Source: a virus (taxonomy: Duplodnaviria; Heunggongvirae; Uroviricota; Caudoviricetes). Taken from it: a stretch of DNA of 32,536 nt. Location: positions 142,633 through 175,168 of IMG/VR virus record IMGVR_UViG_3300032893_000003; one strand, written 5' to 3'. Made by a program: the position numbers and the translations under genes. The notes under the pieces are model-generated. The model saw only the letters and a list, made by a program, of their open reading frames with translations. It was not told where the DNA came from and did no database searches. Shown here piece after piece: positions 3,772-26,572 of the stretch (positions are counted from its first letter, which is position 1; every line of letters starts with the position of its first letter).

Positions 3772-5931
3772 ATGAGCGCTGCGGGTAGCAGGCAGAAATG
3801 TCGGTTGTTTCTAGAGGGACAAGAAGTTCCATTTCAAGGAGCTGTCATCACAGCCGCCGAAGGTGCCCCGATCAGCGCGACAATCAGCCTTGTACCTTTA
3901 CAAGGTATAAAGTTCGTCAAACCGCGAACGCAAGTTCATCTCTTTATGCAGGACACGAAGAATTTTCCAGACGATAACTTTTACCTCGTTTTCGAAGGTG
4001 AAGTTCTTGGTCGTGTTTACGGTAAAAAGCAAAACTCAAGAATGTTCTCGATTGTGGCTTTAGACTACTCGTCCTATTGGGATGAGGCTAAGAGCTATGT
4101 GATGAACCCGAACTTTGTACTTGGCAAAGTTGAAGATACGGTAACGTTCAAAGATGCGCCCGTTGACGAAACCATTAAGGCTCTTGGTGGAGTTGCGTTT
4201 CAGACATCGGCTACATCGAATACCGCGACTATCGACATCATGCTCGCAAATGGCAATAAAGACCTGGCGCTTGGTGTGGTGAATGTCATCAAGAAGTTAG
4301 CCACCGTTAACCAATTTTATTCAGCCGCCTTTGAACGGCTACGTATAAATGACCGCATTAATTTATTCTCTAGCTCAAGGCTTCAAGAATTTTTAGGAGA
4401 GCTTAAAATAGACGATTTCTTGCGCGATTTTACGGGTAAGTTTGGTGGCATATCCTCGCTACGTGAAATTTTATATAGCGTCATGAGCCTTGTGTTTCAT
4501 ACGTTCGTGAGTGTTCCGTTTCCAGCAAGGTTACCTTCAAAGACAAATCCTAAAGATAGCGTTATGTCTCAGTTTTTGTTTGTGCCTGATGGCTACACAT
4601 TGCCAGCTCCTTTGTGCAACGTCGTATTTCCTAATCAGCAGCGCGGCTATCAGTTCCAAGAGGATTTTAGGCAGCTCCCTACACGCTACTCGTTTCGTGC
4701 CAGTATGCCCGTCATGACAGCTCAGGGCATTGATTATCCTCAGTATCCAACTCAGTTCTTTCCTACTGCTTTTTCAGATTATATGTTTGGGAAGCGCACG
4801 GCAACTGACACAGAACTAAGTAGTGAGCTCGGTCCCTCTACACTACTGACGGATCCCAAGACGGGAAATACCTATGCCGGCATTTTTTATGATAACGCAA
4901 ATACATCTGCAGTCGGCGTGGCATTTGGCACAACGCTCAGAGAGGCTGACTATCTCAGTAACGAAGAGTCATTAAAAGGCATCTATCTAGACATGGACAC
5001 TTTCATGCCTGGCTATACGGCTCTTATCAAAGGTGCAAGTCCCGATGCGCGCACGGCCTTCATTCAAGCAATCGGGGAGTATCTATTCTTTAAAAAGCGC
5101 TTTTCAGCCAGACAGACGAGTTCAGACCTGGTGTTTCATCCCTATCTCGTTCCTGGGTTTAACGCGCTCTTTTTAGATGATAGTGAAGCTGGCCAAAGCT
5201 TTGTCGCAAAACTCCAAGTTGTGACGCACACACTTAACAACGATGCTTGCTCCACTTCGGTTGAGCTCGCCTACGGCAGAGACTTCGATGAGGTAGATGC
5301 CGTTACAGGCGGCAGCGGAGATCCGCCTGTTCCGCCATGGTTTGATCCTTCCATATTCGGCTTTGAGGATACCGACAATAAGTATTTCGACCAGGAAACA
5401 AGTTATCTCTTGAAAGTCGGAGCTATCGACAAAAACACGGCAGCCGAGCGCGACGATATCGACAGTCCGGTTGTTTTCCCGTTCATCAATAAATTCTACC
5501 AAGCTCTTTTAGGCTGCAATTCAACAACTAACTATAACGACCCGAGCGGCACACCATCGAATAAAACACCGCCGAAGCCCGTTATCGTTTCGACCCGCGG
5601 AGCTACTGAATGGCTACTTGAGCAGTACAATAAGGTCTCTAGTAATCCGGACGCGGTTGATTCCTTGGTGCGAAAGATTACGGCAAGACCCCTTATGACC
5701 ATGTTTAAGGCGTTTAAATTCATACGGGCGGCACCCATTGGGTACAACGGCAATACGCGCTCTTCCATACCGGCTGAGTTTGCAGCCTTTGGTGCGATTA
5801 CGAGCGGCATTGATTTGCCGGCGCGATTCAACGGGACTGGCTATTCTGACCAAAACGCAATAAAATTGAGGCGCAGCATTATATATCCGTATGTGAAGCT
5901 ATTAAAAACGCGGGTGGGATTCCGTGGCTAA
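3772..5931 (+). CDS. Baseplate hub-like protein (gp27/late control D-type fold) with C-terminal extension
   Basis: SD GAGGAG upstream. The N-terminus RLFLEGQEVPF...ATISL...FEGEV...IVALD and the late segment FHPYLVPGFNALFLDD...VTHTL...TSVEL resemble hub proteins. The position also fits. Confidence 0.6.
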   Translation: MSAAGSRQKCRLFLEGQEVPFQGAVITAAEGAPISATISLVPLQGIKFVKPRTQVHLFMQDTKNFPDDNFYLVFEGEVLGRVYGKKQNSRMFSIVALDYSSYWDEAKSYVMNPNFVLGKVEDTVTFKDAPVDETIKALGGVAFQTSATSNTATIDIMLANGNKDLALGVVNVIKKLATVNQFYSAAFERLRINDRINLFSSSRLQEFLGELKIDDFLRDFTGKFGGISSLREILYSVMSLVFHTFVSVPFPARLPSKTNPKDSVMSQFLFVPDGYTLPAPLCNVVFPNQQRGYQFQEDFRQLPTRYSFRASMPVMTAQGIDYPQYPTQFFPTAFSDYMFGKRTATDTELSSELGPSTLLTDPKTGNTYAGIFYDNANTSAVGVAFGTTLREADYLSNEESLKGIYLDMDTFMPGYTALIKGASPDARTAFIQAIGEYLFFKKRFSARQTSSDLVFHPYLVPGFNALFLDDSEAGQSFVAKLQVVTHTLNNDACSTSVELAYGRDFDEVDAVTGGSGDPPVPPWFDPSIFGFEDTDNKYFDQETSYLLKVGAIDKNTAAERDDIDSPVVFPFINKFYQALLGCNSTTNYNDPSGTPSNKTPPKPVIVSTRGATEWLLEQYNKVSSNPDAVDSLVRKITARPLMTMFKAFKFIRAAPIGYNGNTRSSIPAEFAAFGAITSGIDLPARFNGTGYSDQNAIKLRRSIIYPYVKLLKTRVGFRG

Positions 5932-6805
5932 TGACAAAGTATTTACTGATGAAGACATGAAAAGAGAAGAGGAAAGCCTTTACAAGCTTTCAGCTGAAGA
6001 CCTAAAAGTAAAACGCGAGCGTGAGGCTGGACTTCTGCAGGCTTTTAAGAAGAGTCCCAGTAAAACAACATTCATGCCGCTTTACACTTCTTACAAACCT
6101 TTCATCATCAACGCAGCTAAGCGGAATATGTTTGGAAGCCCTATCCCGCCAGCGGCCCATATTATGTATGCGGCACAAAGTTTTCTCGACGCGATCAGAA
6201 CTCACGACCCCGCCAAGGGAGGCTTCAATACCCATGCCTTCAACACAATTTCTGAGAAGGGAAAGAGGCTGAATCTTAAGTATCAAAACATCGGCTACAT
6301 CCCTGAGTCGCGGGCAACTAAGTATCAGGCATTTCAAACAGCTCAGCATCTCTTACGAGAACATCTAGGCCGCGAACCATCGACACTCGAATTGGCTGAC
6401 GAGATGGCTATGCCGCCCAACGAAATAGAGCGGATGCGAAAGGAAATGCGGCAAGATCTTTTAATGGTGGAACACTTACCCAATATAGGTCCGGCCATCG
6501 CCCAATCAGATAAAGCCATGCAATTTGCGCGGGATCTTCAGTATTCGCTAATCCCTAAACACCGCGTCGTGCTTGAGCACGCAATTGGTCTTAATGGCGT
6601 TAAGCCTTTATTGAAACCCTCAGGAGCGCCTGACATAAAAGCTATTGCCAAAACAGCAAAGCTCACTGTTCCTGAGATCAGATCAGCGATAAAGACTATT
6701 AACAGGAAATTTAAAGAGCACCGCGGGACTATTGGCACAACAGAAACGGACGAGGAGTACGTGCCTGAAGAAGCCATTCCAGAGGGCGAGGAAACCTTTG
6801 AATGA
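5924..6805 (+). CDS. Divergent sigma-70-family RNA polymerase sigma factor
   Basis: Region 2-like FLDAIRTHDPAKGGFNTHAFNTI. Region 3-like IPESRATKYQAF...LLREHLGREPSTLELADEMAM. Region 4-like LIPKHRVVLEHAIGLNG...IKAIAKTAKLTVPEIRS. The GTG start overlaps the hub stop. Confidence 0.8.
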   Translation: MANDKVFTDEDMKREEESLYKLSAEDLKVKREREAGLLQAFKKSPSKTTFMPLYTSYKPFIINAAKRNMFGSPIPPAAHIMYAAQSFLDAIRTHDPAKGGFNTHAFNTISEKGKRLNLKYQNIGYIPESRATKYQAFQTAQHLLREHLGREPSTLELADEMAMPPNEIERMRKEMRQDLLMVEHLPNIGPAIAQSDKAMQFARDLQYSLIPKHRVVLEHAIGLNGVKPLLKPSGAPDIKAIAKTAKLTVPEIRSAIKTINRKFKEHRGTIGTTETDEEYVPEEAIPEGEETFE

Positions 6806-9147: not shown

Positions 9148-11700
9148 ATGGAATTACCAATTATAACATTTATTCAGGCACGACTTCAGGAAGCAAATCC
9201 GGCGTTTGATACGCGGCAAGGGTCAGCGCACTATGACCTTTTTGTGCAGCCTCAAGAGTTCATGCTCCAGCCTTTAAATGATTATATGAGCCAAAGACGA
9301 GTTGGACAAAGTGTAAGACAAATGCTCTTGGATCCGACTCCGGACACCCCGACCACGTTTGCATCAAGCGATGTTGACGATCTTGCAAGCAATTTCTATA
9401 TCACCCGCGATCAGGGAAGTCTGGCTTTCACGACCGCAAGAGTCTATTACATCACTCCCAAGGCTTTATCTTTTCCGGCGCTTACAGCACAATTTACGGC
9501 GGGCTCTTTGAATTTCTTTAACTCTACCGACTTTACCCTTAGCGCTGCAGATATGGCTCTGCAGTCGGATGGTTCTCTTTTCTATGCTGATATTCCCGTT
9601 CAATCTGAGGCCGCGGGCAGCCAGTACAACGTTGATCCAGGATCTATCACTGCCATACTTAATGATCCCGACGCTGTGCGAGTCACGAATCTTTTTAAAG
9701 CAGTCGATGGTTTACCTGCACAAACCAACACCCAGCTTCTCAACCAAATCCCCAACTCTATTGGGGTACGCGACCTTGAAACTGATAAGGGCATTAACGC
9801 CATTCTCAATCAGAACTTTCCGTTCCTTCAGCAAATCGTCCCGATCGGAATGGGGGATCCCGAAATGCAGCGGGATATTCAATATAATATCCATACTGGT
9901 GCCAAGACCGATGTTTACCTGAAAACGCCTAATCTCACGACTGGAACGTTCACGGCTAAGGGTCTTGTCATTGATACGACCCGTGAGATCCCGCGCAACT
10001 TTCATATTGAGATGGCAAGATCACTTTCGGACTCTGAATTTCCAGCCGATACCGGAACGCCGAGCATTGTCTCTGGCTCAGTAGTTGTTAAAGAAGACAT
10101 CATCGAAACGGCTGCGTCTTTACAAAGCGTTTATATTTCTCCCGTCTCGGGCATCGACTTAAGCTCTACACAGTGGCTGAACATAACAATTGATAGCCGC
10201 GCGCCAGTCCAGGTGAAAGTCGCCGGCGCAATTCCGACACAGACAAGACTTTTTGAGATCATCAATGCCATCAACGCAGGTGTAGGACTCGTCGTCGCTA
10301 CGGCCGGTCCAGGCAATACTTTTACGATCACAAGTCCTACGATTGGGGCTGGCTCTCAGATTTCAATTAACGCCACGACATTGCCGATTTTGACCGCCAA
10401 TAACGCAGCTGACGTTCTTTTTGGAATTAGTTTGGGAAGTCTGCCTAAGGTCCTCACTGGGGTTGTAGCAAATACTTACCTTGAGAGTGTCGACTACACG
10501 GTGGATTACGCAACTGGGGCTATTTATCAGACGCCGTTCACTATAGCACAACGTGGACTTCATCAGTCCATTACTTCGGGTCAAACGATGGTTCCTTCAG
10601 TTAGTAACGCTGGAACTGGCGGAAAGATTCAGCTTGTCGGCGTCAATTATCAGTTTCAAGACAATGCTGCAAACGCCTTCGATACAGTTCCTCTTGTCTA
10701 TGTTCGCCCAGGTGATGAGCTGACAATTACAAGCATTAATGGATTTTCATCCGGAACCCAGATCGGAATCTCCATTCCCTCAACATACATTGTCTCTGAT
10801 GTTCTTTCTGGGAATGCTTTGTCACTTGCTGGATTTAATCCAACAGGAACGAGCACGAACGTCACCTACTCTATTGTCAGTACGCAAACAGTTAACATTT
10901 CCTACAAATACAATCCGATAAGCATCGACATCGGCTCACAAGTGCTCTTACCAGACGGGACCCGCGGCATACGACCGGGGCGCTCTGCTTTTACGATCAC
11001 AGATGTGCCTTTCATAAAAATTCTATCTATCCAGCAAGTTGACCCAAATACTCTCGAACCTTTGGGCAGTCCACTAGTTCAACCAAGTGGCTACGGGGCT
11101 GCAGGTTATGGTCAGGGCGGATATGGTCAAGGTGCTAGCGGCGATTACATTTTTTATGTCAATTCCCCGACTGAGCGGTTTTCTGTCTTTGAGGACTCAG
11201 TCATTGTGTTTAATGAAAACGCTTTGGGGCTGAGTTACACGGTGACCTACTACTATAACCCAGAACTTGTTGCGATCCACAATCTCACCCGCAACGATAC
11301 AGAGCGAGTCACTGGAGCAGATATCTTGGTGAAAAGTATGGTCCCTTGTTTTGTCGATATGACGATTGGGATTAGACGAGATCCTACAAACATAAACACA
11401 CCAGCTGATGCAGACTTGGCAACGCTGGTTGAACAACTGGTCAACGCCGTCGTTTCTCCAAATGGATTAAAAGAATCCGCCATTGAAGCACTTCTTATGG
11501 GAGAGGGTGTTGCCTCAGTTCAAACCCCTTTTACAATGCTTGGGACCGTCTATAACACAGACGGCTCGACATCGATTATTCAAAGTACAGATGTTCTTCA
11601 AGTGCCTACCCCCACCCTTCCATCGCAAACTGATAACTTCACAACAGCGCGGATTTCTCATTTCTGGCCTGGCAACATTTCAGTCGTCGAGGTTACATGA
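9148..11700 (+). CDS. Baseplate J-like (gp6-type) wedge protein with inserted domains
   Basis: The N-terminus FIQARLQEANPAFDTRQGSAHYDLFVQP, the segment IPVQSEAAGSQYNVDPGSI...VTNLFKAVDGLPAQTN and the C-terminal PCFVDMTI...SVQTP fit baseplate J architecture. Confidence 0.75.
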   Translation: MELPIITFIQARLQEANPAFDTRQGSAHYDLFVQPQEFMLQPLNDYMSQRRVGQSVRQMLLDPTPDTPTTFASSDVDDLASNFYITRDQGSLAFTTARVYYITPKALSFPALTAQFTAGSLNFFNSTDFTLSAADMALQSDGSLFYADIPVQSEAAGSQYNVDPGSITAILNDPDAVRVTNLFKAVDGLPAQTNTQLLNQIPNSIGVRDLETDKGINAILNQNFPFLQQIVPIGMGDPEMQRDIQYNIHTGAKTDVYLKTPNLTTGTFTAKGLVIDTTREIPRNFHIEMARSLSDSEFPADTGTPSIVSGSVVVKEDIIETAASLQSVYISPVSGIDLSSTQWLNITIDSRAPVQVKVAGAIPTQTRLFEIINAINAGVGLVVATAGPGNTFTITSPTIGAGSQISINATTLPILTANNAADVLFGISLGSLPKVLTGVVANTYLESVDYTVDYATGAIYQTPFTIAQRGLHQSITSGQTMVPSVSNAGTGGKIQLVGVNYQFQDNAANAFDTVPLVYVRPGDELTITSINGFSSGTQIGISIPSTYIVSDVLSGNALSLAGFNPTGTSTNVTYSIVSTQTVNISYKYNPISIDIGSQVLLPDGTRGIRPGRSAFTITDVPFIKILSIQQVDPNTLEPLGSPLVQPSGYGAAGYGQGGYGQGASGDYIFYVNSPTERFSVFEDSVIVFNENALGLSYTVTYYYNPELVAIHNLTRNDTERVTGADILVKSMVPCFVDMTIGIRRDPTNINTPADADLATLVEQLVNAVVSPNGLKESAIEALLMGEGVASVQTPFTMLGTVYNTDGSTSIIQSTDVLQVPTPTLPSQTDNFTTARISHFWPGNISVVEVT

Positions 11701-16823: not shown

Positions 16824-19727
16824 GTGACGACTACGAAGTTTGTTAAATCTTCTGCGCCTTATAATCACGATACGTTTAACTCCGTGAGCCAATATTTAGT
16901 TGGAATGAGCGGCGTATTGCAAGGCGGTCTAACGACGACTTCGGGCACAACTGTCACTGTACAGCCGTTATCATGGATTCAAAACGGGCTGATCGTTAAT
17001 GTCGATATCCCGCTTACCGCAACCTTACCTGTATATTTGACACCGCCCTACTATGTTGCTGTGACCTCTTCGTCTCCTATTGAAATGCTCACTGAGATTA
17101 TTACCCCTACATTCGTCAAACGACCGGAAGATATTTCTGCCGGCACCGTTTTAGTGGCCGCCTGGGACGGCACAGAATGGCGACAACTTCCGTACTTAGA
17201 CATCAGCGCGCAGATTGCCGCACGGGCTCAAGATGCTATCAATGAGAACTTTATTGGGATTGGTAGCGGGTTTAGTAGTGCTGTTAACGGAAGCAATATC
17301 GTCGTAGCACCCGGGGCTGCGATAGCGGTTGATGGAACATCCGTCGTAAAAAAAGTTTCGACTTCTTTGCCCATTATAGCCGCCGATCCCGATGGATATG
17401 AGCGCATTGATGAAGTAGTTTTACGAAAGCCTCAGGGCGACCCTTCGCGGATAGCCACCATCAACTATGTAGTTGGTCAGATATGCGATCCGAGCGGAGG
17501 CACTGATCTTTCCCACGCGACATCCATCAGTTCCTCAGTTTCAAGCGCGGCTAAGATACTCAATAACCCGACGACTGATGATCTTTATTTCCTTTACCTT
17601 GAGGGCACTACCCTTAACTTCAGACAATCAAATAACGTTCTAGGCTCAATGTCTGGAGCTACAGTTTTATCCGCGACGGTGGACGCCTTTGATGCTGTTT
17701 TAAATCCTAGCGGGTCAATTGACATCGTTTACACAGACAGCACCGATGTTCATTATCTGCGCATAGATAACACAGGTTCTGTTATCTTTACTGACAGCGT
17801 TATTTATACGAATGTGAATCCTGTCAGCAATGCTAGGCTTGTGACAATCGCATCTGGTAGCACCTATTACATCCACATCGTTTTCCAGCAGTACGTCGGT
17901 CCTACGCAAAATATGTTTAAGTATTTAAGGCTCTCTGCCTTAAATACCGTCGAAACAAATGCTGTCACCCTACTTAATACTGGAGATCAGATAGCAAATC
18001 CGTCTCTGGAAAAGGATGATGACGATTCGATTTTATTTTTAGCTTTTGAAGATACGACAAATGGCGCTGTGTACTTGGTGGAGTACGACGCTGGAACAGC
18101 TACCAACGCCACTCCTCCGACAGTTTTAGTTCCCATGATGTCGCTTCAGTCAGATACATTTAACCTGATAACGCAAGCAGCTTTGGCCTCGACAGGTGCT
18201 AAAAATGCCGTTGTTAAACGCGCAGCTAACAAAGAGACTTACGTTTTCTGGTTACATACCACGGGCGGCGGAAATTATGTCGTAGCCGTCTACAACCGAA
18301 ATTACATAAACACATTCGGACACAAGGCTCTCTATACGACGTTGTACACTCTTGGAGAATCGACCCAAGCCTACGATGTTGCCATCGACGGATTGAGCAC
18401 GGCGCATATCATCATGCTCGACGCAGATGAGGCTGTAGCAGCAAACCTGCAGCTGGATACTTTCACTGCAAGCGCCCCCATCCAGATCGAAGCTTCTGGA
18501 TGTATGGATGTCAGGACGGCATTCACTTCTCTTGGAGCCTTAATCCACGCTTATGCTGACAGCACACCAAGCTCTAATCTCGTTAAGTCTACGAGCGGAC
18601 TTATTACAACATTGCGGGATCGACAGCTCCCCTTTACAGACGTATATCTCGCTCATTATAGAAAAAGCGATGGCCAGATCTCCGTTGCGGGCACAGCTAT
18701 CGAAGAAGACCCGTCAATTCGAAGACTTTATGAGTTCAATCATCTCTACGCTGGCACCGGCAGTGTTACGTGGACAGGATCAGCGACAAATAAGATTGTG
18801 ATCAACGCGCCTATAACAATCAACGGCCTTAATCGAAGTGGAACTTTGACTATCCCCACAAACGGGGCTGGGACTGTTGTCCCTGTGGGCTATGCTGCCT
18901 GTATAGCAGTGCCTGACGATGACGTTACGCAGAACGTAAGTCTGCAGATGATCGCTTTTGGAAGCGGGCTTCTGGATCGATATCATCGCAACCTTGTTCC
19001 TATATTTTGGAATATTTCTAGCGTTCTTTATACGCGATTTGCACCATTTAGACTCGATGCTGCCGGTGAGACGGTTATCATCGGACATACTTTAAATGAT
19101 GATGAGCGTAGCTACTTGGGGATGCCGGTAGACCCGGACCCGAGCAATCACGGCTATACGTCGACTGTCCATATTACCCAAAGTATGAGCCATAACGAGG
19201 CGATCGGAGTATTAGACGCTGCCATTACGGGCGGCGGTGGCGGCGACACCTTTACAACTGGCAACGTGGCTTTGACCAATGGTACTACTACGCAAGCAGT
19301 TACGTTTAGCACAGCCTTTGGAACTACAAACTATCGTGTTGTACCTTCATTTGAAAATGATACTGATCCAAACCCACAGTTTCAGCCTATTACGATTACA
19401 AATAAGCTGACCACGGGCTTTACCGCGACTTGGAACGCCCCGCTAGACTCTGGTAATTACTCCCTTAACTATCTGGCCCTGATCGACAGTAACGATGCTG
19501 GAAGCCAGGCTTTGACGATAGGTACACAGACCCAGACCATTACTTTCGGCACTGCTCGCGGGACACCGCTTTATAAGCCGATCGTGATCATGGAAAATAC
19601 TGTGGATCCAAATCCGCAGTACCAGCCTATTACGATTACGAATAAAACTGTCAACGGCTTTACGGTGAAGTGGAACGCCCCGCTTGATTCTAGCAACTAC
19701 ACTCTCGACTGGATTGTGGCTGATTAG
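16824..19727 (+). CDS. Large tail fibre / receptor-binding protein with a propeller-like middle and two C-terminal 80-aa repeats
   Basis: 967 aa, Thr/Ser/Val-rich. Repeated FDAVLNPSGSIDIVY / YDVAIDGLSTAHII strands suggest propeller blades. A GGGGG linker precedes the tandem domains. Confidence 0.65.
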   Translation: MTTTKFVKSSAPYNHDTFNSVSQYLVGMSGVLQGGLTTTSGTTVTVQPLSWIQNGLIVNVDIPLTATLPVYLTPPYYVAVTSSSPIEMLTEIITPTFVKRPEDISAGTVLVAAWDGTEWRQLPYLDISAQIAARAQDAINENFIGIGSGFSSAVNGSNIVVAPGAAIAVDGTSVVKKVSTSLPIIAADPDGYERIDEVVLRKPQGDPSRIATINYVVGQICDPSGGTDLSHATSISSSVSSAAKILNNPTTDDLYFLYLEGTTLNFRQSNNVLGSMSGATVLSATVDAFDAVLNPSGSIDIVYTDSTDVHYLRIDNTGSVIFTDSVIYTNVNPVSNARLVTIASGSTYYIHIVFQQYVGPTQNMFKYLRLSALNTVETNAVTLLNTGDQIANPSLEKDDDDSILFLAFEDTTNGAVYLVEYDAGTATNATPPTVLVPMMSLQSDTFNLITQAALASTGAKNAVVKRAANKETYVFWLHTTGGGNYVVAVYNRNYINTFGHKALYTTLYTLGESTQAYDVAIDGLSTAHIIMLDADEAVAANLQLDTFTASAPIQIEASGCMDVRTAFTSLGALIHAYADSTPSSNLVKSTSGLITTLRDRQLPFTDVYLAHYRKSDGQISVAGTAIEEDPSIRRLYEFNHLYAGTGSVTWTGSATNKIVINAPITINGLNRSGTLTIPTNGAGTVVPVGYAACIAVPDDDVTQNVSLQMIAFGSGLLDRYHRNLVPIFWNISSVLYTRFAPFRLDAAGETVIIGHTLNDDERSYLGMPVDPDPSNHGYTSTVHITQSMSHNEAIGVLDAAITGGGGGDTFTTGNVALTNGTTTQAVTFSTAFGTTNYRVVPSFENDTDPNPQFQPITITNKLTTGFTATWNAPLDSGNYSLNYLALIDSNDAGSQALTIGTQTQTITFGTARGTPLYKPIVIMENTVDPNPQYQPITITNKTVNGFTVKWNAPLDSSNYTLDWIVAD
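19245..19724 (+). repeat. Tandem coding duplication with 240-nt (80-aa) period
   Basis: gatccaaacccacagtttcagcctattacgattac (19365) versus gatccaaatccgcagtaccagcctattacgattac (19605); both encode DPNPQ.QPITITNK...GFT..WNAPLDS.NY. Confidence 0.9.
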
Positions 19728-19806: not shown

Positions 19807-20463
19807 ATGGGTTCATTTAAGTTAGGTGCGCTTGTTGAGCGCACAACCTCGACAGCTACGGCCGCGGGGACCACAACTCTCCTTAACAATTCAACCACTT
19901 ATCAACGGTTTACTGGAACCACAACTCAGACTGTGCAGCTTCCTGATGCCACAACGCTAGTCGTTGGTATGAAGTATGTCATACAGAATAGATCGACCGG
20001 TACAGTGACAGTCAATGATGGCTCGGGCGGCACTTTAAAAACTATCGCAGCCGGCATTGACGTCGTGTTTCAAGTATACAGTATAGGAACAGTGGCTGGC
20101 ACGTGGGATATCGGCAACCCATCTAGCGGCGGTGGCGGCGGTTCTGGAAACGCTTTTAGCAGCGCAACCTCGATCGATCCGTCTTCTCAGTCGCCATATG
20201 CCATGTCTAGTTCAAGCAATCAAGGCACTGTTTTTGAAGTCAATACTGCAAACGGTGCCATGCAGTTTAATCTACCTGCCTTGTCTGCTAATTTTATTTT
20301 TACGGTAGTGGATACTGCGGGGTCGGCAGATACAAATAACATCACGATCCATCGTAATGGCAGTGAATCCATACAAGGGGTGGCTGCTGATTATGTTATC
20401 AAAGCGCCCTACTCATCGACGACGTTTTTCTGTGATGGGGCAAACTATTTTATCGTAGCTTAG
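19807..20463 (+). CDS. Short two-domain fibre/adaptor protein
   Basis: SD AAGGAG. TVQLPDATTLVVGMKYVIQNRSTGTVTV and FNLPA...FTVVDTAGSADTNNITIHRNGSESIQG...DGANYFIV are two copies of a common phage fibre module, joined by a Gly linker. Confidence 0.7.
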   Translation: MGSFKLGALVERTTSTATAAGTTTLLNNSTTYQRFTGTTTQTVQLPDATTLVVGMKYVIQNRSTGTVTVNDGSGGTLKTIAAGIDVVFQVYSIGTVAGTWDIGNPSSGGGGGSGNAFSSATSIDPSSQSPYAMSSSSNQGTVFEVNTANGAMQFNLPALSANFIFTVVDTAGSADTNNITIHRNGSESIQGVAADYVIKAPYSSTTFFCDGANYFIVA

Positions 20464-20471
20464 AGGACAGA

Positions 20472-21944
20472 ATGGCTAGGCTGGTTAGAGAAACATTTAC
20501 GTACAATACGACATGGACTGCTCCAGCAGGCGTTAAGTATGTCATCGCCCATGGGATACGTAATGGTGCCGCACTCGGCGCTACGGCAACTGCTATTGAT
20601 TCCTTTAACAGAGGCTTTACGTGGGGTAACAATAATAACGGACAATTAGGAGATGGAACGACCACGGCACGTTCCTCACCGGTCGCTGTACTTGGAGGCT
20701 TAAGCTTCGTGCAGTTAATGACCGGCAGTTTTTTAGGCTGCGGTTTAACGACGACTGGTGTGGCCTACGGCTGGGGACAGGGAGGGACCACAGGAGACGG
20801 AACGACCACAGCGCGTTCGTCTCCGGTAGCTATGGTTGGTGGCCTGCTTTTTTCAAGACTCGTAGCGACTCCAAGTCGACAATCAGGATTTGCCTTCACA
20901 ACTACAGGAGTTCTGTATGGCTGGGGAGTCAATAACGTAGGTCAGCTCGGAAACAACGCGACTACCACAGCATCATCACCGACAGCAGTTGCTGGTGGAC
21001 TGACATTTGTTGACGTACAATTCAGCGATGCACAAGTTTCCGTTTTAGGAAAAACGTCGAGTGGGGCAGCCTATGGCTGGGGTCCAAATGCTTTTGGACA
21101 ATTGGGAGATGGAACGACCACAGGCCGCTCATCTCCTACAGCGGTTCTTGGTGGACTGACTTTCACGTCTATCTATTGCATGGAAGCGCATAGCGCTGGA
21201 CTTACTTCTGATGGATCACTTTATATGTGGGGATATAATAGTTTTGGCCAACTGGGGGACGGGACTACTACAGCACGTTCATCTCCAGTAGCCGTAGTCG
21301 GCGGTTTGAAATTTAGCAAAATTGCAATTGCTTCTAATAACGGAGTTAACACCTCAGTAATTGGTCTGACAAAAACGGGTCAAGCCTATGGCTGGGGGTT
21401 TAATTCCTTTGGTGAGTGTGGGTTGGGAAATACCACGGCCCATTCATCCCCTGTAGCTTTATCAGGTGGTCTAACGTTTGTGGATGTAACATCCAATCTC
21501 GGGGCTTCTAACCCTTTCTTCTTTCTTCGTACTGCCGACGGTACTCTCTACACGACGGGCGATAATTCTACAGGTCAGCTAGGAGTTGGTGACACGACTA
21601 ACAGATCATCTCCAACAGCAGTTTTAGGTGGCTTAAAATTTGCTTATGTATATCCCACTTACTCGACATATTCACTAGCAGCAACACCGAACGGCAATCT
21701 GTATGCTTGGGGTGTCAATTCCATAGGTAATTTAGGAGTGGGGGACACGACTCCTCGTTCGTCTCCAGTAGCCGTAGTCGGCGGTTTCTTAACCTATATG
21801 AATATTACAAATGCAGACTTGCGTGTGACTGTGATCCCTGGAACGACCTATAATATAAATCCTCAGCAATTTAATGCACAGTTTGGGCCGTACACACTGG
21901 GGCAGGGACCTCTGGAATCTATAACGCTGGAGTACGTTCTTTAA
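20472..21944 (+). CDS. RCC1/BLIP-II-like repeat protein 1 (8 repeats), putative receptor-binding tip
   Basis: Eight WGxNxxGQLGDGTTTxRSSPVAVxGGLxF units; SD GAGGA. Confidence 0.9.
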   Translation: MARLVRETFTYNTTWTAPAGVKYVIAHGIRNGAALGATATAIDSFNRGFTWGNNNNGQLGDGTTTARSSPVAVLGGLSFVQLMTGSFLGCGLTTTGVAYGWGQGGTTGDGTTTARSSPVAMVGGLLFSRLVATPSRQSGFAFTTTGVLYGWGVNNVGQLGNNATTTASSPTAVAGGLTFVDVQFSDAQVSVLGKTSSGAAYGWGPNAFGQLGDGTTTGRSSPTAVLGGLTFTSIYCMEAHSAGLTSDGSLYMWGYNSFGQLGDGTTTARSSPVAVVGGLKFSKIAIASNNGVNTSVIGLTKTGQAYGWGFNSFGECGLGNTTAHSSPVALSGGLTFVDVTSNLGASNPFFFLRTADGTLYTTGDNSTGQLGVGDTTNRSSPTAVLGGLKFAYVYPTYSTYSLAATPNGNLYAWGVNSIGNLGVGDTTPRSSPVAVVGGFLTYMNITNADLRVTVIPGTTYNINPQQFNAQFGPYTLGQGPLESITLEYVL

Positions 21945-23446
21945 TGGGTAAAGTGGTAAGGGAATACTTTTACGGAAATTCAACATGGACCGCACCTGGC
22001 GGTGTGAAGTACATTATCGTTTACAGTTTTAAAAATTCACAACAAGTTCTGGGCGGTACAACAACAACCCTCCTTAATAGCTACGGAAGCGCTTACTGCT
22101 GGGGTTCAAACGCGAACGGAGTTCTTGGCAATAACTCAGCCACTTCAGCTTTTTCTAGCCCTGTAGCCGTAGTCGGTGGTTTAACGTTTGCCTCGCTTTA
22201 CACAGCCACTTCATTCAACTTCGGTATTACTCCTAAAGGAGTAGCGTACGGTTGGGGGGCTAATGGCAACGGAGAACTTGGCGACGGAAGCACAACCAGC
22301 AGATCGTCGCCAGTAACGGTAGCTGGTGGTCTTTTATTTCAAAAGATTACGGCTAATAATGCTGCCAGCAGTTTCGGCCTTACGCCGTCGGGTGCTGTGT
22401 ATGCCTGGGGAATCAATGGTAGTGGGCAGTTAGGTGACGGGACAAGCACGCAGCGCTCGTCTCCTGTGGCCGTTCTCGGTGGATTAGCGTTTGCTGATAT
22501 AGTCACCGGAGTTACAGGCGGCACCACTTGTTTCACGGTCGGTCTAACTACGAGCGGGGCAGCCTATGCTTGGGGTACAAATGCCAAGGGCCAGATGGGT
22601 GATGGAACAACGACAACGCGTACATCTCCAACGGCAGTGCTTGGTGGATTGACGTTTAGCAAAATTTTTCTTCTTAACGATACTGCGGCCAACGGCGGAA
22701 CTGTCTTTGCACTGACGTCTTCCGGAACAGCTTATGCTTGGGGAAGTAATGGCGCAGGCATTCTTGGGGTCGGAGATACAACTCCCCGCTCGTCTCCAGT
22801 TGCAGTACTTGGAGGACTTTCTTTTGTAAATATTTTCAGCGTTATTGCCAATGGCGGGGCATCGGCTTACTTTCTGACTAGCTCTGGTGCGCTGTATGCC
22901 ACAGGATCCAACAGTGCTGGGCAGCTTGGAGATGGAACAACAACGGCACGTTCATCGCCGGTCGCGGTTATAGGCGGACTTTCCTTTATAGACGTCATGG
23001 GTGGCGTGAGTGAGACCACAACCTACGGTCTGACCACTAGTGGGTCACTATATGCCTGGGGATATAATGCAAACGGACAGCTTGGCGTGAATGACACCAC
23101 TTCCAGGTCCTCTCCAGTCGCTGTTGTCGGCGGTCTGACGTTTTCGCGTTTAGCTACGAGCTCGGCAAACAATATGTATGCCATGACCCCTGGTGGAGTT
23201 GTTTACGCCTGGGGCCAAAATTCTTCGGGAAGTCTGGGGGTCAATGACACAACTCCTCGCTCATCACCTGTAGCAGTCGTAGGCGGAGTTACGGCAGCAG
23301 CTGCTATAACTCAAACGGTAAAAAGAATTTCTGTTGTTCCCGGGACGTCTTATACGGTAGGGATTAAGCAGCTAAACGCCCAACTCGGAGCAGAAGCTCT
23401 GGGAGCAGGTCCATTTGATTACATTATTGTAGAGCACGAAATATGA
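21944..23446 (+). CDS. RCC1/BLIP-II-like repeat protein 2 (8 repeats)
   Basis: Same architecture as protein 1; TAATG coupling. Confidence 0.9.
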   Translation: MGKVVREYFYGNSTWTAPGGVKYIIVYSFKNSQQVLGGTTTTLLNSYGSAYCWGSNANGVLGNNSATSAFSSPVAVVGGLTFASLYTATSFNFGITPKGVAYGWGANGNGELGDGSTTSRSSPVTVAGGLLFQKITANNAASSFGLTPSGAVYAWGINGSGQLGDGTSTQRSSPVAVLGGLAFADIVTGVTGGTTCFTVGLTTSGAAYAWGTNAKGQMGDGTTTTRTSPTAVLGGLTFSKIFLLNDTAANGGTVFALTSSGTAYAWGSNGAGILGVGDTTPRSSPVAVLGGLSFVNIFSVIANGGASAYFLTSSGALYATGSNSAGQLGDGTTTARSSPVAVIGGLSFIDVMGGVSETTTYGLTTSGSLYAWGYNANGQLGVNDTTSRSSPVAVVGGLTFSRLATSSANNMYAMTPGGVVYAWGQNSSGSLGVNDTTPRSSPVAVVGGVTAAAAITQTVKRISVVPGTSYTVGIKQLNAQLGAEALGAGPFDYIIVEHEI

Positions 23447-24936
23447 AGAAAATTAGACAAACCTTTTACTATAACGGAACTTTTACAGCACCTACAGGTG
23501 TTAAATATGTCACCGTCTATGGTGTTAAGTATCCGCCTGCGCCGATATCCGGACTAGCCGGATTTTTTATCGATAGCTTTGGAGCCCTTCACAGCTATGG
23601 GTCAAATACAGTCGGGCAGCTCGGTGACGGAACTTCTGTTAGCAAATCATCTCCAGTTGCTGTTGTAGGGGGTCTAAGTTTCGCGTCTCTTCACTACACT
23701 CTAAGCACGACCTACGGGATTACAACCTCTGGCGATCTTTACTCTTGGGGCAATAATTCTAGTGGACAGCTCGGTGACGGAACAACGACTAATCGTTCGT
23801 CTCCTGTAGCCGTTGTTGGCGGTCTGAAATTTCAAAAAGTTATCTGTGGCTCGAGTGCCCTCTGTGCTTGGGGATTAACACCTGCTGGCACCCTCTATGC
23901 GTGGGGTGATAATACCAACGGTGAGCTTGGCGATAATACGGTCGTTGCAAAATCTTCTCCTATCGCCGTATCTGGTGGGCTTACTTTTACTGATATAACT
24001 TTCGTATCTTCGACTGGCATTATAGGTATTACAAATACAGGCGCGGCTTATGCTTGGGGCGTAAACACGAATGGCAACATCGGTGATGGCACTACGACTA
24101 ACCGCTCATCCCCGACGGCAGTTTTAGGCGGTCTGGTTTTTACAAAAATCGTGTGTACCGGAAGTATTAGCGCAGCTTCTGTTATGGGTCTTACAAGTTC
24201 GGGCGCTGCTTATGGTTGGGGCTATAACGCTGATGGAAGACTTGGTGTGGGGGATACAACTCCTCGCTCATCACCTGTAGCCGTGCTCGGTGGCCTTAGC
24301 TTTACGGACATCTACGCCGGTGGATTTAATGCAAGCACTGGTGGCAATTTCTACCTGCAAACGACAGACGGCACGATATACAGTATTGGAAATAATCTAA
24401 GCGGTGAACTTGGTGTGGGTGACAACAATGCGCGTTCATCTCCCGTCGCTGTTGTCGGTGGTTTAACTTTTAAGCAGCTTTATACTGGCACCTCTGGTGG
24501 TCGTATAGGTCTTACGACAACAGGAGCCGCCTATGGTTGGGGCGACAATACCGCGGGTAATCTGGGTGTAGGCGACAACAACGCGCGCTCATCGCCAGTC
24601 GCCGTAGTGGGGGGTTTGAGCTTTACGAGACTTACCACTATGTTTGTCGGAGCATTTCAAAATTCAGGAGCCTATACGGCTAATGGGCAGCTGTACACAT
24701 GGGGCAGCAACACGAGTGGCCAGTTAGGTGACGGAACGACTAACAATAGGTCATCTCCTGTGGCCGTTCTTGGGGTCTTTTTGCCAAACGTCGGTGAAAC
24801 CATCGTTTCCAAATTAATAACTGTTACGCCAGGGAATACTTACGCCGTTAACATACAGCAGTATAATGGACAATTTGGACTCGAAACGCTGGGTCCTGGG
24901 CCTTACGATTACATAGTTGTTGAATATTCAAACTAA
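23443..24936 (+). CDS. RCC1/BLIP-II-like repeat protein 3 (8 repeats)
   Basis: Same architecture as proteins 1 and 2; ATGA coupling. Confidence 0.9.
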   Translation: MKKIRQTFYYNGTFTAPTGVKYVTVYGVKYPPAPISGLAGFFIDSFGALHSYGSNTVGQLGDGTSVSKSSPVAVVGGLSFASLHYTLSTTYGITTSGDLYSWGNNSSGQLGDGTTTNRSSPVAVVGGLKFQKVICGSSALCAWGLTPAGTLYAWGDNTNGELGDNTVVAKSSPIAVSGGLTFTDITFVSSTGIIGITNTGAAYAWGVNTNGNIGDGTTTNRSSPTAVLGGLVFTKIVCTGSISAASVMGLTSSGAAYGWGYNADGRLGVGDTTPRSSPVAVLGGLSFTDIYAGGFNASTGGNFYLQTTDGTIYSIGNNLSGELGVGDNNARSSPVAVVGGLTFKQLYTGTSGGRIGLTTTGAAYGWGDNTAGNLGVGDNNARSSPVAVVGGLSFTRLTTMFVGAFQNSGAYTANGQLYTWGSNTSGQLGDGTTNNRSSPVAVLGVFLPNVGETIVSKLITVTPGNTYAVNIQQYNGQFGLETLGPGPYDYIVVEYSN

Positions 24937-24954: not shown

Positions 24955-25989
24955 ATGGAGACTCAAAATAAATTCGTGCCTTATACAAGGCAACAGCCCG
25001 TCGTTTTAGATCCTAGTTTTTTCCCCGCTCTACGCACCGTAGATGCTGTCATGCGAGGGGTAAATAAAAATGTCTTAATAAATTGTTGGGGCGGCATCGG
25101 GGATCAAGTTTGTTCCGAACCAACTATAAGGCATGCGATCCACAATTTTAAAGATTGTAAGATCACAATCGCTACAACCCTGCCAGAACTATTTCAGCAT
25201 TTGCCCTATCACGACCTTTACGACTTAAAAAAAGAACGTCCGATTCATGATGATTACTGGGTGTGCGAACCTATCCCGAACCAAAGTCCGCAAAATCTTG
25301 CAGCCCAGTTTATAAGTCATATGGTGATGAACTGCGTGGATTTTCCAGCTGTGTCTGCCTTTAGAATGCAGCTTCCGATCAAAGACAGAGAAATTGTTTT
25401 AAAGCCTAAAACGCCGACCAATGAAGTGGTTTTGGATATAGTAAAAGAGGCGGCTAAACACGTTGTAGTTCACCCAGGACGACACTGGGTTTCTAAGACA
25501 TTTCCAGCTGCGTGGTACAATCGTGGACTTGCAAGCATCATCAAGGAAGGCTTTATTCCCGTTCTTATTGGTAAAGAAGACGGACCCACTCAGGGCACTG
25601 TTAATGTCGATGTGTCTGGCTGCATAGATCTCCGCGAGAAGACAACTCTGAATGACACAATTTGGCTCCTTCAAAATACAGGCGTTCTTATTTGCAATGA
25701 TTCTTCGCCACTTCATATGGCTGCAAGCGGAAAAGCCTGGATCGGGTTTTTTGCTTCCGTAAAGCATCCTGATTTTATAACCCATTGGAGAAATGGGCAG
25801 TGGTCATGGAGGATGCAGAACCTGAGTGTGGACGGCATTTACAATCACTTTAACTTTTGCCCCAACACTGAAACAGATCTTCTACTAGATAACGTTGAAG
25901 AAAGCCTTGTTTTGCGATGCTTACCAGAGCCAGAGATTATAGGTCCGTGGTGTAAGGAGAAGATGGATGACTATTTCAGAAGCATTTAA
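24955..25989 (+). CDS. Glycosyltransferase family 9 (heptosyltransferase-like, GT-B fold)
   Basis: GGIGDQV...PTIRH, VVVHPGRHWVSKTFP, IDLREKTTLNDTIWLL and LICNDSSPLHMAAS are GT9 hallmark motifs. Confidence 0.85.
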   Translation: METQNKFVPYTRQQPVVLDPSFFPALRTVDAVMRGVNKNVLINCWGGIGDQVCSEPTIRHAIHNFKDCKITIATTLPELFQHLPYHDLYDLKKERPIHDDYWVCEPIPNQSPQNLAAQFISHMVMNCVDFPAVSAFRMQLPIKDREIVLKPKTPTNEVVLDIVKEAAKHVVVHPGRHWVSKTFPAAWYNRGLASIIKEGFIPVLIGKEDGPTQGTVNVDVSGCIDLREKTTLNDTIWLLQNTGVLICNDSSPLHMAASGKAWIGFFASVKHPDFITHWRNGQWSWRMQNLSVDGIYNHFNFCPNTETDLLLDNVEESLVLRCLPEPEIIGPWCKEKMDDYFRSI

Positions 25990-26572
25990 CGCAACCACCT
26001 GGGCCCCTAAACTTGCCCGAAGAAAAAACACTTTTGAGGCAATGATCAATCATGTGTGGAATAAAGCGGGTGGAGGAGACCCAGTTTTTATTGTAGAGAC
26101 GGGAAGTGCTTGGGATATGGGAAATTGGGACGGGCAGGGGCAGTCCACTTTGATATGGGATTGGCTCATCGAAGAGGGCAAAGCTCATGGAAAAAATATT
26201 AGAGCTTACTCCGTTGATATCAATGAAGAGAGCGTTACAACAGCGCGTTTCCAAGTTAAAAACGTCGACGTTGTTCTTAGCGATTCTGTCAAATTTTTAA
26301 ATGGACTTACCCCATGGGTGTTAAACAACGCAGCGCTCGTATACTTAGATTCTTATGACTGGTCTCAAGAAAGAAACATAGAGTCAGCATTTCATCACAT
26401 GGCAGAGCTTGCAGCCGTTTGGAGAGATTTGAGGCCTGGCTGTATGGTAGCTGTCGACGATCGCCATGGTGACTATAAGGGAAAGCACTGGCTTGTCGAG
26501 GCTTTCATGGGGCACTATCTAAAAACCGCTCCCGCCTTTAAAAGCCATCAGATAGGCTGGATTAAGGCCTAG
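25967..26572 (+). CDS. Class I SAM-dependent methyltransferase (Methyltransf_24-like)
   Basis: FIVETGS (motif I), YSVDIN, SDSVKFL, LVYLDSYD, GCMVAVDD and GK motifs; SD AAGGAG; 23-nt overlap with the GT9 gene. Confidence 0.8.
   Translation: MTISEAFNATTWAPKLARRKNTFEAMINHVWNKAGGGDPVFIVETGSAWDMGNWDGQGQSTLIWDWLIEEGKAHGKNIRAYSVDINEESVTTARFQVKNVDVVLSDSVKFLNGLTPWVLNNAALVYLDSYDWSQERNIESAFHHMAELAAVWRDLRPGCMVAVDDRHGDYKGKHWLVEAFMGHYLKTAPAFKSHQIGWIKA

Follow-up and report, generated by a model that had tools for sequence, protein, structure and literature searches.

We analysed a stretch of 32,536 nucleotides (hereafter the window) that makes up the final 32.5 kb of a 175,168-bp virus record (IMGVR_UViG_3300032893_000003, Caudoviricetes), and we propose that three adjacent genes within it encode tips of a tail or baseplate fibre of the phage. 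In each gene, a complete propeller of RCC1 repeats sits between two short end segments that are, by profile comparison, homologous to the frame of the Pfam Gly_rich_2 family, the TNF-like frame of Pam3 gp24. We consider it probable that the three genes are paralogous fibre tips in which the propeller is carried by a reduced TNF-like sandwich, is mounted on an adaptor encoded directly upstream, and binds the host. The adaptor, the tips and the segments of each tip lie as follows.

19807-20463, plus strand: adaptor, 218 amino acids (aa), two beta domains joined by a Gly/Ser linker
20472-21944, plus strand: tip paralogue 1, 490 aa, with a frame N-end, an eight-repeat RCC1 propeller and a frame C-end
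20472-20561, plus strand: aa 1-30 of paralogue 1, the frame N-end, with three strands predicted (4-9, 13-16, 23-30) at a predicted local distance difference test (pLDDT) of 79-87
20562-21806, plus strand: aa 31-445 of paralogue 1, the inserted propeller, with eight RCC1 repeats and 31 strands predicted
21807-21941, plus strand: aa 446-490 of paralogue 1, the frame C-end, with five strands predicted
21944-23446, plus strand: tip paralogue 2, 500 aa, eight RCC1 repeats between frame ends
21944-22033 and 23309-23443, plus strand: frame ends of paralogue 2 (aa 1-30 and aa 456-500)
23443-24936, plus strand: tip paralogue 3, 497 aa, eight RCC1 repeats between frame ends
23443-23529 and 24799-24933, plus strand: frame ends of paralogue 3 (aa 1-29 and aa 453-497)

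The adaptor ends with the stop codon TAG followed by GAGGA, and the ATG of paralogue 1 begins 8 nucleotides past that stop. Paralogues 1 and 2 overlap in TAATG, paralogues 2 and 3 overlap in ATGA, and a gap of 18 nucleotides separates paralogue 3 from the next gene. An initial interpretation of this DNA from its letters and translations (the sequence-only reading) had described three coupled genes of 490, 500 and 497 aa with a 218-aa adaptor gene just upstream; the positions of all four open reading frames (ORFs) were exactly as it gave them, and the junctions are indeed tight.

Roughly 30 N-terminal and 45 C-terminal residues of each paralogue are not RCC1 sequence and are common to all three. 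The N-end carries the motif ..R(E/Q)xF.xN.T(W/F)TAP.GVKY and the C-end carries (I/V)(T/S)V.PG..Y...Q.N.Q.G...LG.GP...I..E(Y/H); in the 175-kb genome, both end motifs are carried by just the three tip ORFs. We searched 5.8 billion proteins for further members of this family and found many metagenomic proteins of ~500 aa with the same ends, along with longer forms described below; 41 members of the family were collected. The shared non-RCC1 ends noticed at the outset were thus confirmed, and they recur in at least 41 metagenomic relatives. The family was not found in the cultured phages of the searched collection, where tblastn matched the propeller interior only, at <35% identity and never at the ends. 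A word-based search with the C-end region retrieved only the orthologue in a sister phage, described below.

The solved reference for the frame is gp24, the tail fibre of cyanophage Pam3, a trimer with an N-terminal helix and a TNF-like sandwich of two five-stranded sheets, whose loops L1-L6 extend from the sandwich to form a glycine-rich lattice and which is structurally similar to S16 gp38 and ALK (PMC9608196). In Pfam, Pam3 gp24 (PDB 7YPX/7YFW) matches PF21722 (Gly_rich_2) at residues 92-274. To compare the window family with such domains, we concatenated the two ends of each of the 41 family members into one profile and aligned it with 13 Pam3-type domains using local hhalign. The joined ends matched the Pam3-type Gly_rich_2 domains with a score of 49.3 (Prob 95.5, E 1.5e-8), compared with a mean of 9.9 (sd 1.8, maximum 16.9) for 100 column shuffles of the joined-ends profile and 11.8 for the reversed profile. 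In this alignment the N-end strands are paired, a gap follows, and then the VxVxPGxxYxVxxG strands are paired; the gap is exactly glycine loop L1, which is the exact point at which the propeller is inserted. Each end was also significant by itself. The N-end alone aligned to columns 1-30 of the Gly_rich_2 frame (score 38.5, E 6.4e-8), and the C-end alone aligned to columns 58-79 of the glycine-rich domain (score 25.6, E 1.6e-4), so that each landed at its expected co-linear position. The sequence-only reading had taken the ends for the frame of the glycine-rich domains at fibre tips, had suggested that the glycine-rich interior was swapped for a whole propeller, and had named a profile comparison of the joined ends with glycine-rich domains as a check; the comparison found the similarity and placed the propeller at loop L1, in agreement with both suggestions.

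Not all hallmarks of Gly_rich_2 are shared. The frame N-end has the N-terminal strand FTxSGxWTxPxGVxxVxV, and the frame C-end has the VxVTPGxxYxVxVG strand pair that follows loop L1. The glycine-rich loops that make up the distal lattice (GGGGxGG motifs, about 30-40% Gly) are not present, and RCC1 repeats lie between the ends instead. The 120 residues past the N-end contain 13-20% Gly in family members, versus at least 30% in most true glycine-rich matches. The whole tip proteins matched no Pfam families besides the RCC1 families and did not reach the gathering cut-off of PF21722. By Pfam search, PF21722 was also absent from the phage's own genome and from phages BUCT-ZZ01, S-SRM01 and 121Q.

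We then searched 1.84 billion proteins with a 33-position profile of the N-end alone, resulting in 281 matches at E ≤ 0.001. Among the top 150 matches were 142 new proteins, including 70 glycine-rich proteins and 24 with an RCC1 frame; the remaining top matches were mostly repeat proteins caught via a short motif (for example, P0137 and P0157). All of the sampled glycine-rich matches (9/9) pass Pfam PF21722 and match at the start of the domain (profile positions 4-7), and in glycine-rich proteins the C-end model matches 30-45 residues past the N-end match. Alignment of the joined ends with 19 confirmed Gly_rich_2 proteins yielded Prob 98.3 and E 1.6e-14 and extended to the xFG segment; as these 19 proteins were picked by their N-end match, independent evidence comes only from the alignment of the C-end.

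The homology to a solved TNF-like sandwich is one reason to think that the two ends of each tip would fold into one domain; the other is P0241, a natural protein of 88 aa that consists of the N-end, a 16-aa loop and the C-end. P0241 aligns to columns 3-66 of the 69 columns of the joined-ends profile (Prob 97.8, E 8.8e-13), and a look-up of P0241 in the Atlas gave scores of 0.89, which we treat as a lead only. The sequence-only reading had proposed that the ends refold as one docking domain. Such a single domain would follow from the homology and from P0241, and in the AlphaFold2 (AF2) model of paralogue 1 the N-end and the C-end each contain strands predicted with confidence. A further protein, P0247 (233 aa), places the same ends around an insert of ~150 aa that is neither glycine-rich nor RCC1. 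Together, P0241 and P0247 argue that the frame behaves as a scaffold with a variable insert at L1. In further forms of the frame, among P0236 (237 aa), P0263 (351 aa) and P0237 (849 aa), the RCC1 repeats number 3, about 5, or at least 11, and the three-repeat form would be unable to close a propeller by itself.

The insert of the window family is an RCC1-like domain by its Pfam matches. The three tip paralogues are 51-53% identical pairwise, and each of them contains eight RCC1 repeats whose SSP anchors recur every 48-56 aa. All three match Pfam RCC1 (E 5.6e-48 to 1.8e-57, 162-192 bits) and WD40_RLD (200-225 bits), and their tandem ~50-aa repeats score above the curated cut-offs of the RCC1-like families (PF00415, PF25390). 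RCC1, UVR8 and HERC2 have seven blades, and the paralogues differ from them with eight repeats each. The AF2 model of paralogue 1 (pLDDT 86, predicted template modelling score 0.80) contains 3 strands in the N-end, 31 in the propeller and 5 in the C-end, and its best structural matches were UVR8 (Z 34.3, 337 residues) and HERC2 RLD3 (Z 34, model residues 80-443). The seven-bladed chains cover only ~335 of the ~415 propeller residues, which leaves about one repeat unmatched; two viral ESM Atlas clusters align to the model over 379-405 residues at 2.5 Å. From this model, the propeller of the paralogue is likely an eight-bladed ring. Across the family the insert is remarkably constant in length (420-445 aa), and eight repeats were found in 25 of the 29 members counted. 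Seven repeats occur in P0054 and in a group of ~440-460 aa, and nine in P0017 and P0096.

To place the tips in their genomic context, we surveyed 23 loci of the family with purpose-built models. In small phages, the tips follow baseplate wedge genes, and E217 gp41-like, sheath-initiator and Wedge1 genes are present. Some members are longer forms of ~800 aa in which a conserved N-terminal domain of ~300 aa precedes the same N-end strand; in one siphophage, two such fused forms follow a lambda-J-like tip protein. In L006 (4428-5288), the gene for a canonical glycine-rich tip of 286 aa lies two genes upstream of that for the propeller tip, within one baseplate-distal block, and the same occurs in L015 and L023. 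Unfused tips are present in one copy (about nine lineages) or in three, and never in two, while fused forms occur in two copies. The triplets are those of the window and its sister phage (window 20472-24936), L018 (6001-10492) and L021 (3376-7326). In a tree of these proteins, the L021 triplet is lineage-specific, as is the L018 pair, and the six proteins of the window and sister phage group apart from the rest; therefore, each lineage went from one copy to three on its own. This one-or-three pattern is suggestive of an assembly with three seats and rests on three events.

The sister phage (contig L005, 175,812 bp) has the same gene order as the window, running from a 969-aa protein and a 220-aa adaptor through three tips to a glycosyltransferase of family 9 (GT9). 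Its flanking genes are 67-80% identical to those of the window, and paralogue 3 is 74% identical to its sister orthologue. For paralogues 1 and 2, overall identity to their positional counterparts (L005 6514-9488) is only 52-55%. Their interiors are 50-54% identical to those of the sister phage, as distant as paralogues are from each other, and the N-end of paralogue 1 is 77% identical. The distance of these interiors indicates that the propellers at positions 1 and 2 were exchanged or diverged fast.

We next considered the gene directly upstream of the tips. The C-terminal ~90 aa of the adaptor form a gp9/gp10-like domain: residues 128-208 match Pfam T4_gp9_10_N (PF07880; E 4.5e-7, with 30.6 bits where the cut-off is 25), and the protein matches phrog_967, annotated “baseplate wedge tail fiber connector” (E 1.4e-7). 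A model of the adaptor resembles T4 gp9, T4 gp10 and CBA120 TSP4-N at a low confidence of pLDDT 57; a Foldseek search with this model matched 1qex, 2fl8, 5iv5 and 7rfo over ~80 columns at 2.1-2.6 Å root-mean-square deviation (E 2e-3 to 4e-2). By BLAST, the adaptor C-domain matches the upstream genes in L006, L007 and L009 (E 1e-16 to 1e-26). Where tips are unfused, 16 of 17 loci have this C-domain at the end of the gene directly upstream, whatever the N-terminal part of that gene. In addition, P0044 fuses the N-domain of an L006/L009-type adaptor (52-56% identical, E 1e-48) straight to the frame, without the socket domain, which argues for a single fibre made up of adaptor and tip. The early suggestion that the tips are perhaps carried on the 218-aa adaptor is thus supported by gene order and by one fusion protein. 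A 1:1 complex prediction of tip and adaptor gave a score of 0.00, under the mark, which counts neither for nor against binding. We also compared the halves of the adaptor with each other for signs of an internal duplication (E 0.023), and compared a 204-aa protein of L006 with the adaptor C-domain for a second adaptor-tip pair in tandem (E 0.024); both are unproven.

Downstream of the tips, the window contains two further genes of interest.

24955-25989, plus strand: GT9 (heptosyltransferase-like) glycosyltransferase, Pfam Glyco_transf_9
25967-26572, plus strand: 201-aa protein that overlaps the GT9 stop and matches phrog_24975 (E 1.9e-23)

The window GT9 belongs to Pfam Glyco_transf_9 (E 6.6e-8, 32.6 bits against a cut-off of 22), and its translation contains the segment NDSSPLHMAAS, which we take to correspond to the GT9 nucleotide-sugar motif. 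A phmmer search for the closest PDB sequence returned WaaF at E 0.89 and no other match. GT9 orthologues adjoin the tip genes in L005-L009 (35-59% identity, E below 1e-54), and a GT9 gene lies ≤1.2 kb downstream of the tips in all 18 of the 18 evaluable loci, which come from the window, L005-L009 and L012-L028. This association includes the siphophage, with two tips and two GT9 genes, and the GT9 gene sits where fibre chaperones are usually encoded. The phrog_24975 protein is 49-59% identical to the genes that follow GT9 in L005 (12020-12661) and L007 (8543-9121), and it may be a further member of the cassette; at other loci this position is taken by genes for FkbM-type methyltransferases (Methyltransf_21). 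A second, weak GT9-like match was found in the 175-kb record (G000) at 106542-106622.

The remaining structural region of the window is poorly annotated. A gp6-like baseplate wedge gene lies at 9148-11700, upstream of the tips. Closer to them, a 967-aa protein (16824-19727) is 67% identical in the sister phage and matched no family; it ends in two tandem repeats of ~85 aa after a GGGGG linker, and it is probably another fibre or baseplate protein. Within the structural operon, a 293-aa ORF (5924-6805) has matches to region 3 of Sigma-70 (E 5.8e-6) and to a sigma factor family in PHROG. The sequence-only reading had labelled the genome a myophage, a label that we could not verify: Pfam Phage_sheath_1 has no match in the 175-kb record, and a contractile tail is not verified by that model. 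Sheath-initiator genes are present in related small phages that carry the tip family.

Taken together, these observations suggest how the tips could be built and used. Each tip would be a reduced TNF-like beta-sandwich, with three strands contributed by the first ~30 residues and five by the last ~45. The complete eight-repeat RCC1 propeller would sit at glycine loop L1, with the other glycine loops cut to turns. The tip is presumably part of the virion; the propeller would point away from the particle and bind a target on the host surface, a glycan being the likeliest. No attachment domain is present in the tips themselves, which may be mounted on the 218-aa upstream protein. The gp9/gp10-like C-terminal domain of the adaptor could provide the socket, with the tip frame docking nearby, a role that gp10-like domains play in receptor-binding complexes of the branched type. 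With three different propellers, the particle could have up to three binding specificities, which would be widened or combined. As part of the same cassette, the GT9 enzyme could glycosylate the tip or modify the host receptor.

Several results weigh against this account. The phage itself is uncultured. Pfam PF21722 fails to score the isolated ends even at E 10, and a search of PDB sequences with the C-end profile returned chance antibody matches only. The last strand motif is visible (IxxEY versus GIIIVQY), but its alternative hhalign match is weak (E 0.12). For the adaptor, the low confidence of the model must be considered, and an hhalign comparison of its C-domain with the pre-frame domain of the ~800-aa fused forms was not significant (E 0.24). 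Finally, between paralogue 3 and its sister orthologue, changes do not cluster in the inter-blade loops (identity of 0.76 vs 0.75).

We weighed this account against several others. The likeness of the frame might be a short strand motif (WTAPxGV, VxPGxxY) that arose by convergence or chance. The segments are short, the N-end profile also catches unrelated repeat proteins such as P0137 and P0157, and Pfam's own model gives the ends no score. We nevertheless regard this as very improbable, given that two separate segments match in the right order and place and are each significant alone, that the shuffled and reversed controls score far lower, and that the C-end model finds its match 30-45 residues past the N-end in glycine-rich proteins. 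The bridge forms P0241 and P0247 and the canonical glycine-rich tip gene in the same L006 gene block point the same way. It is also possible to see the tips not as parts of the virion but as lectin-like partners or substrates of GT9 that act on the host envelope, for example in receptor modification. The near-obligate link to GT9 and the methyltransferase genes that often come next would be consistent with such a role. However, the tips lie within baseplate or fibre modules, directly after wedge or tip-J genes; their frame shares homology with a fibre domain of solved structure, fusions to N-terminal domains of fibre type exist in some forms, and the upstream gene has a gp9/gp10-like domain, all of which make a role away from the particle improbable.

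A different question is how the three tips are combined. The sequence-only reading had raised a heterotrimer as a mere possibility. The paralogues might be the A, B and C chains of an obligate heterotrimeric head, with one copy of each propeller per fibre, as in C1q, a three-fold TNF-like assembly whose three chains come from tandem genes. Such a head would account for unfused tips in one or three copies and never two, for triplets in three lineages that by the tree arose separately, and for the translational coupling of the tip genes; the homologous Pam3 fibre is, moreover, a trimer (PMC9608196). However, most relatives are single-copy, so a homomeric or monomeric form works, and, between the sister phages, independent replacement has affected the interiors at positions 1 and 2. 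The TNF-like domains of Pam3 touch only loosely, and trimerisation is driven by the N-terminal helix, which is missing here; S16 gp38, a related glycine-rich adhesin, caps a trimeric fibre (PMC9608196). With a sample of just three expansions, we hold the obligate heterotrimer to be rather unlikely. A more specific form of it, in which a C1q-style head is seated on a trimeric gp9/gp10-like socket and glycosylated by GT9, and in which at least three phage lineages independently reached three copies because there are three seats, we hold to be somewhat less likely again. If it were true, each fibre would carry three different eight-bladed propellers at once.

We favour the reading of the three genes as paralogous, adaptor-mounted tips, and it has implications beyond this phage. 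Receptor-binding tips decide which bacteria are infected, and the glycine-rich, TNF-like tip is among the few types with solved structures. The small sandwich looks like a general display scaffold that can hold a propeller (of 7, 8 or 9 repeats), another insert, or nothing. For many phage genes annotated “RCC1” or “chromosome condensation,” fibre tips would be the likelier meaning. The cassette of socket domain, tip and GT9 appears to be portable: contractile-type phages, both large and small, carry it, and so does a lambda-like siphophage. Two questions follow, namely why there are one or three copies and never two, and what a heptosyltransferase-like enzyme does in the position of a fibre chaperone. 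Our literature search found no account of a propeller inserted in this frame, of an adaptor-tip-GT9 cassette, or of a fibre-linked phage heptosyltransferase.

Parts of the cassette nevertheless have counterparts in known systems. In bacteria, the autotransporter heptosyltransferases AAH and TibC are GT9-type enzymes encoded beside an adhesin. As in these systems, the GT9-type gene of the window adjoins an adhesin that it could modify. The analogy is functional only: no specific sequence similarity to the window GT9 was found, and modification of the tip is pure hypothesis. gp10-like domains are known to serve as docking platforms in CBA120 and G7C. In the branched complexes of these phages (CBA120 TSP4/TSP2, G7C gp66; T4 gp9 socket), as in the window, a gp9/gp10-like domain is followed by several receptor-binding proteins. 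Unlike those proteins, which are tailspikes with N-terminal docking domains of their own, the window tips would be ~500-aa propellers set in a sandwich.

RCC1-like genes have been reported in jumbo coliphages such as phAPEC6, where they were considered possible DNA-organising factors of unknown function (PMC7247149). The phage RCC1-like propellers of PHROGs 4219, 7220 and 16766 have the same kind of repeat, and several paralogues occur in large phages; the frame, the norm of eight repeats, and the adaptor and GT9 partners are specific to the window family.

For the frame, the comparison is with Pam3 gp24 and related adhesins such as S16 gp38, and with the TNF-like plus glycine-rich region of ALK. 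The window tips and Pam3 gp24 both have the segments FTxxGxWTxPxGVxxVxV, VxVxPGxxYxVxxG and xFG, with a visible but only weakly aligned final hydrophobic strand leading to a C-terminal Y or W; both would be the distal part of a fibre encoded at the end of a baseplate module, and in both the variable part grows from the loops of the sandwich. In contrast to Pam3 gp24, the window tips have no glycine lattice; they have a ~415-aa propeller at L1 with turns in place of the other loops, and 8 predicted strands rather than 10. They also have no N-terminal helical attachment domain, and attachment is apparently delegated to the separate adaptor, while the usual position of a chaperone holds GT9 rather than a Tfa-type chaperone. 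On the basis of these profiles, the window family would act like a glycine-rich tip without being one: it shares the frame, and it departs in the glycine lattice and in the Pfam score.

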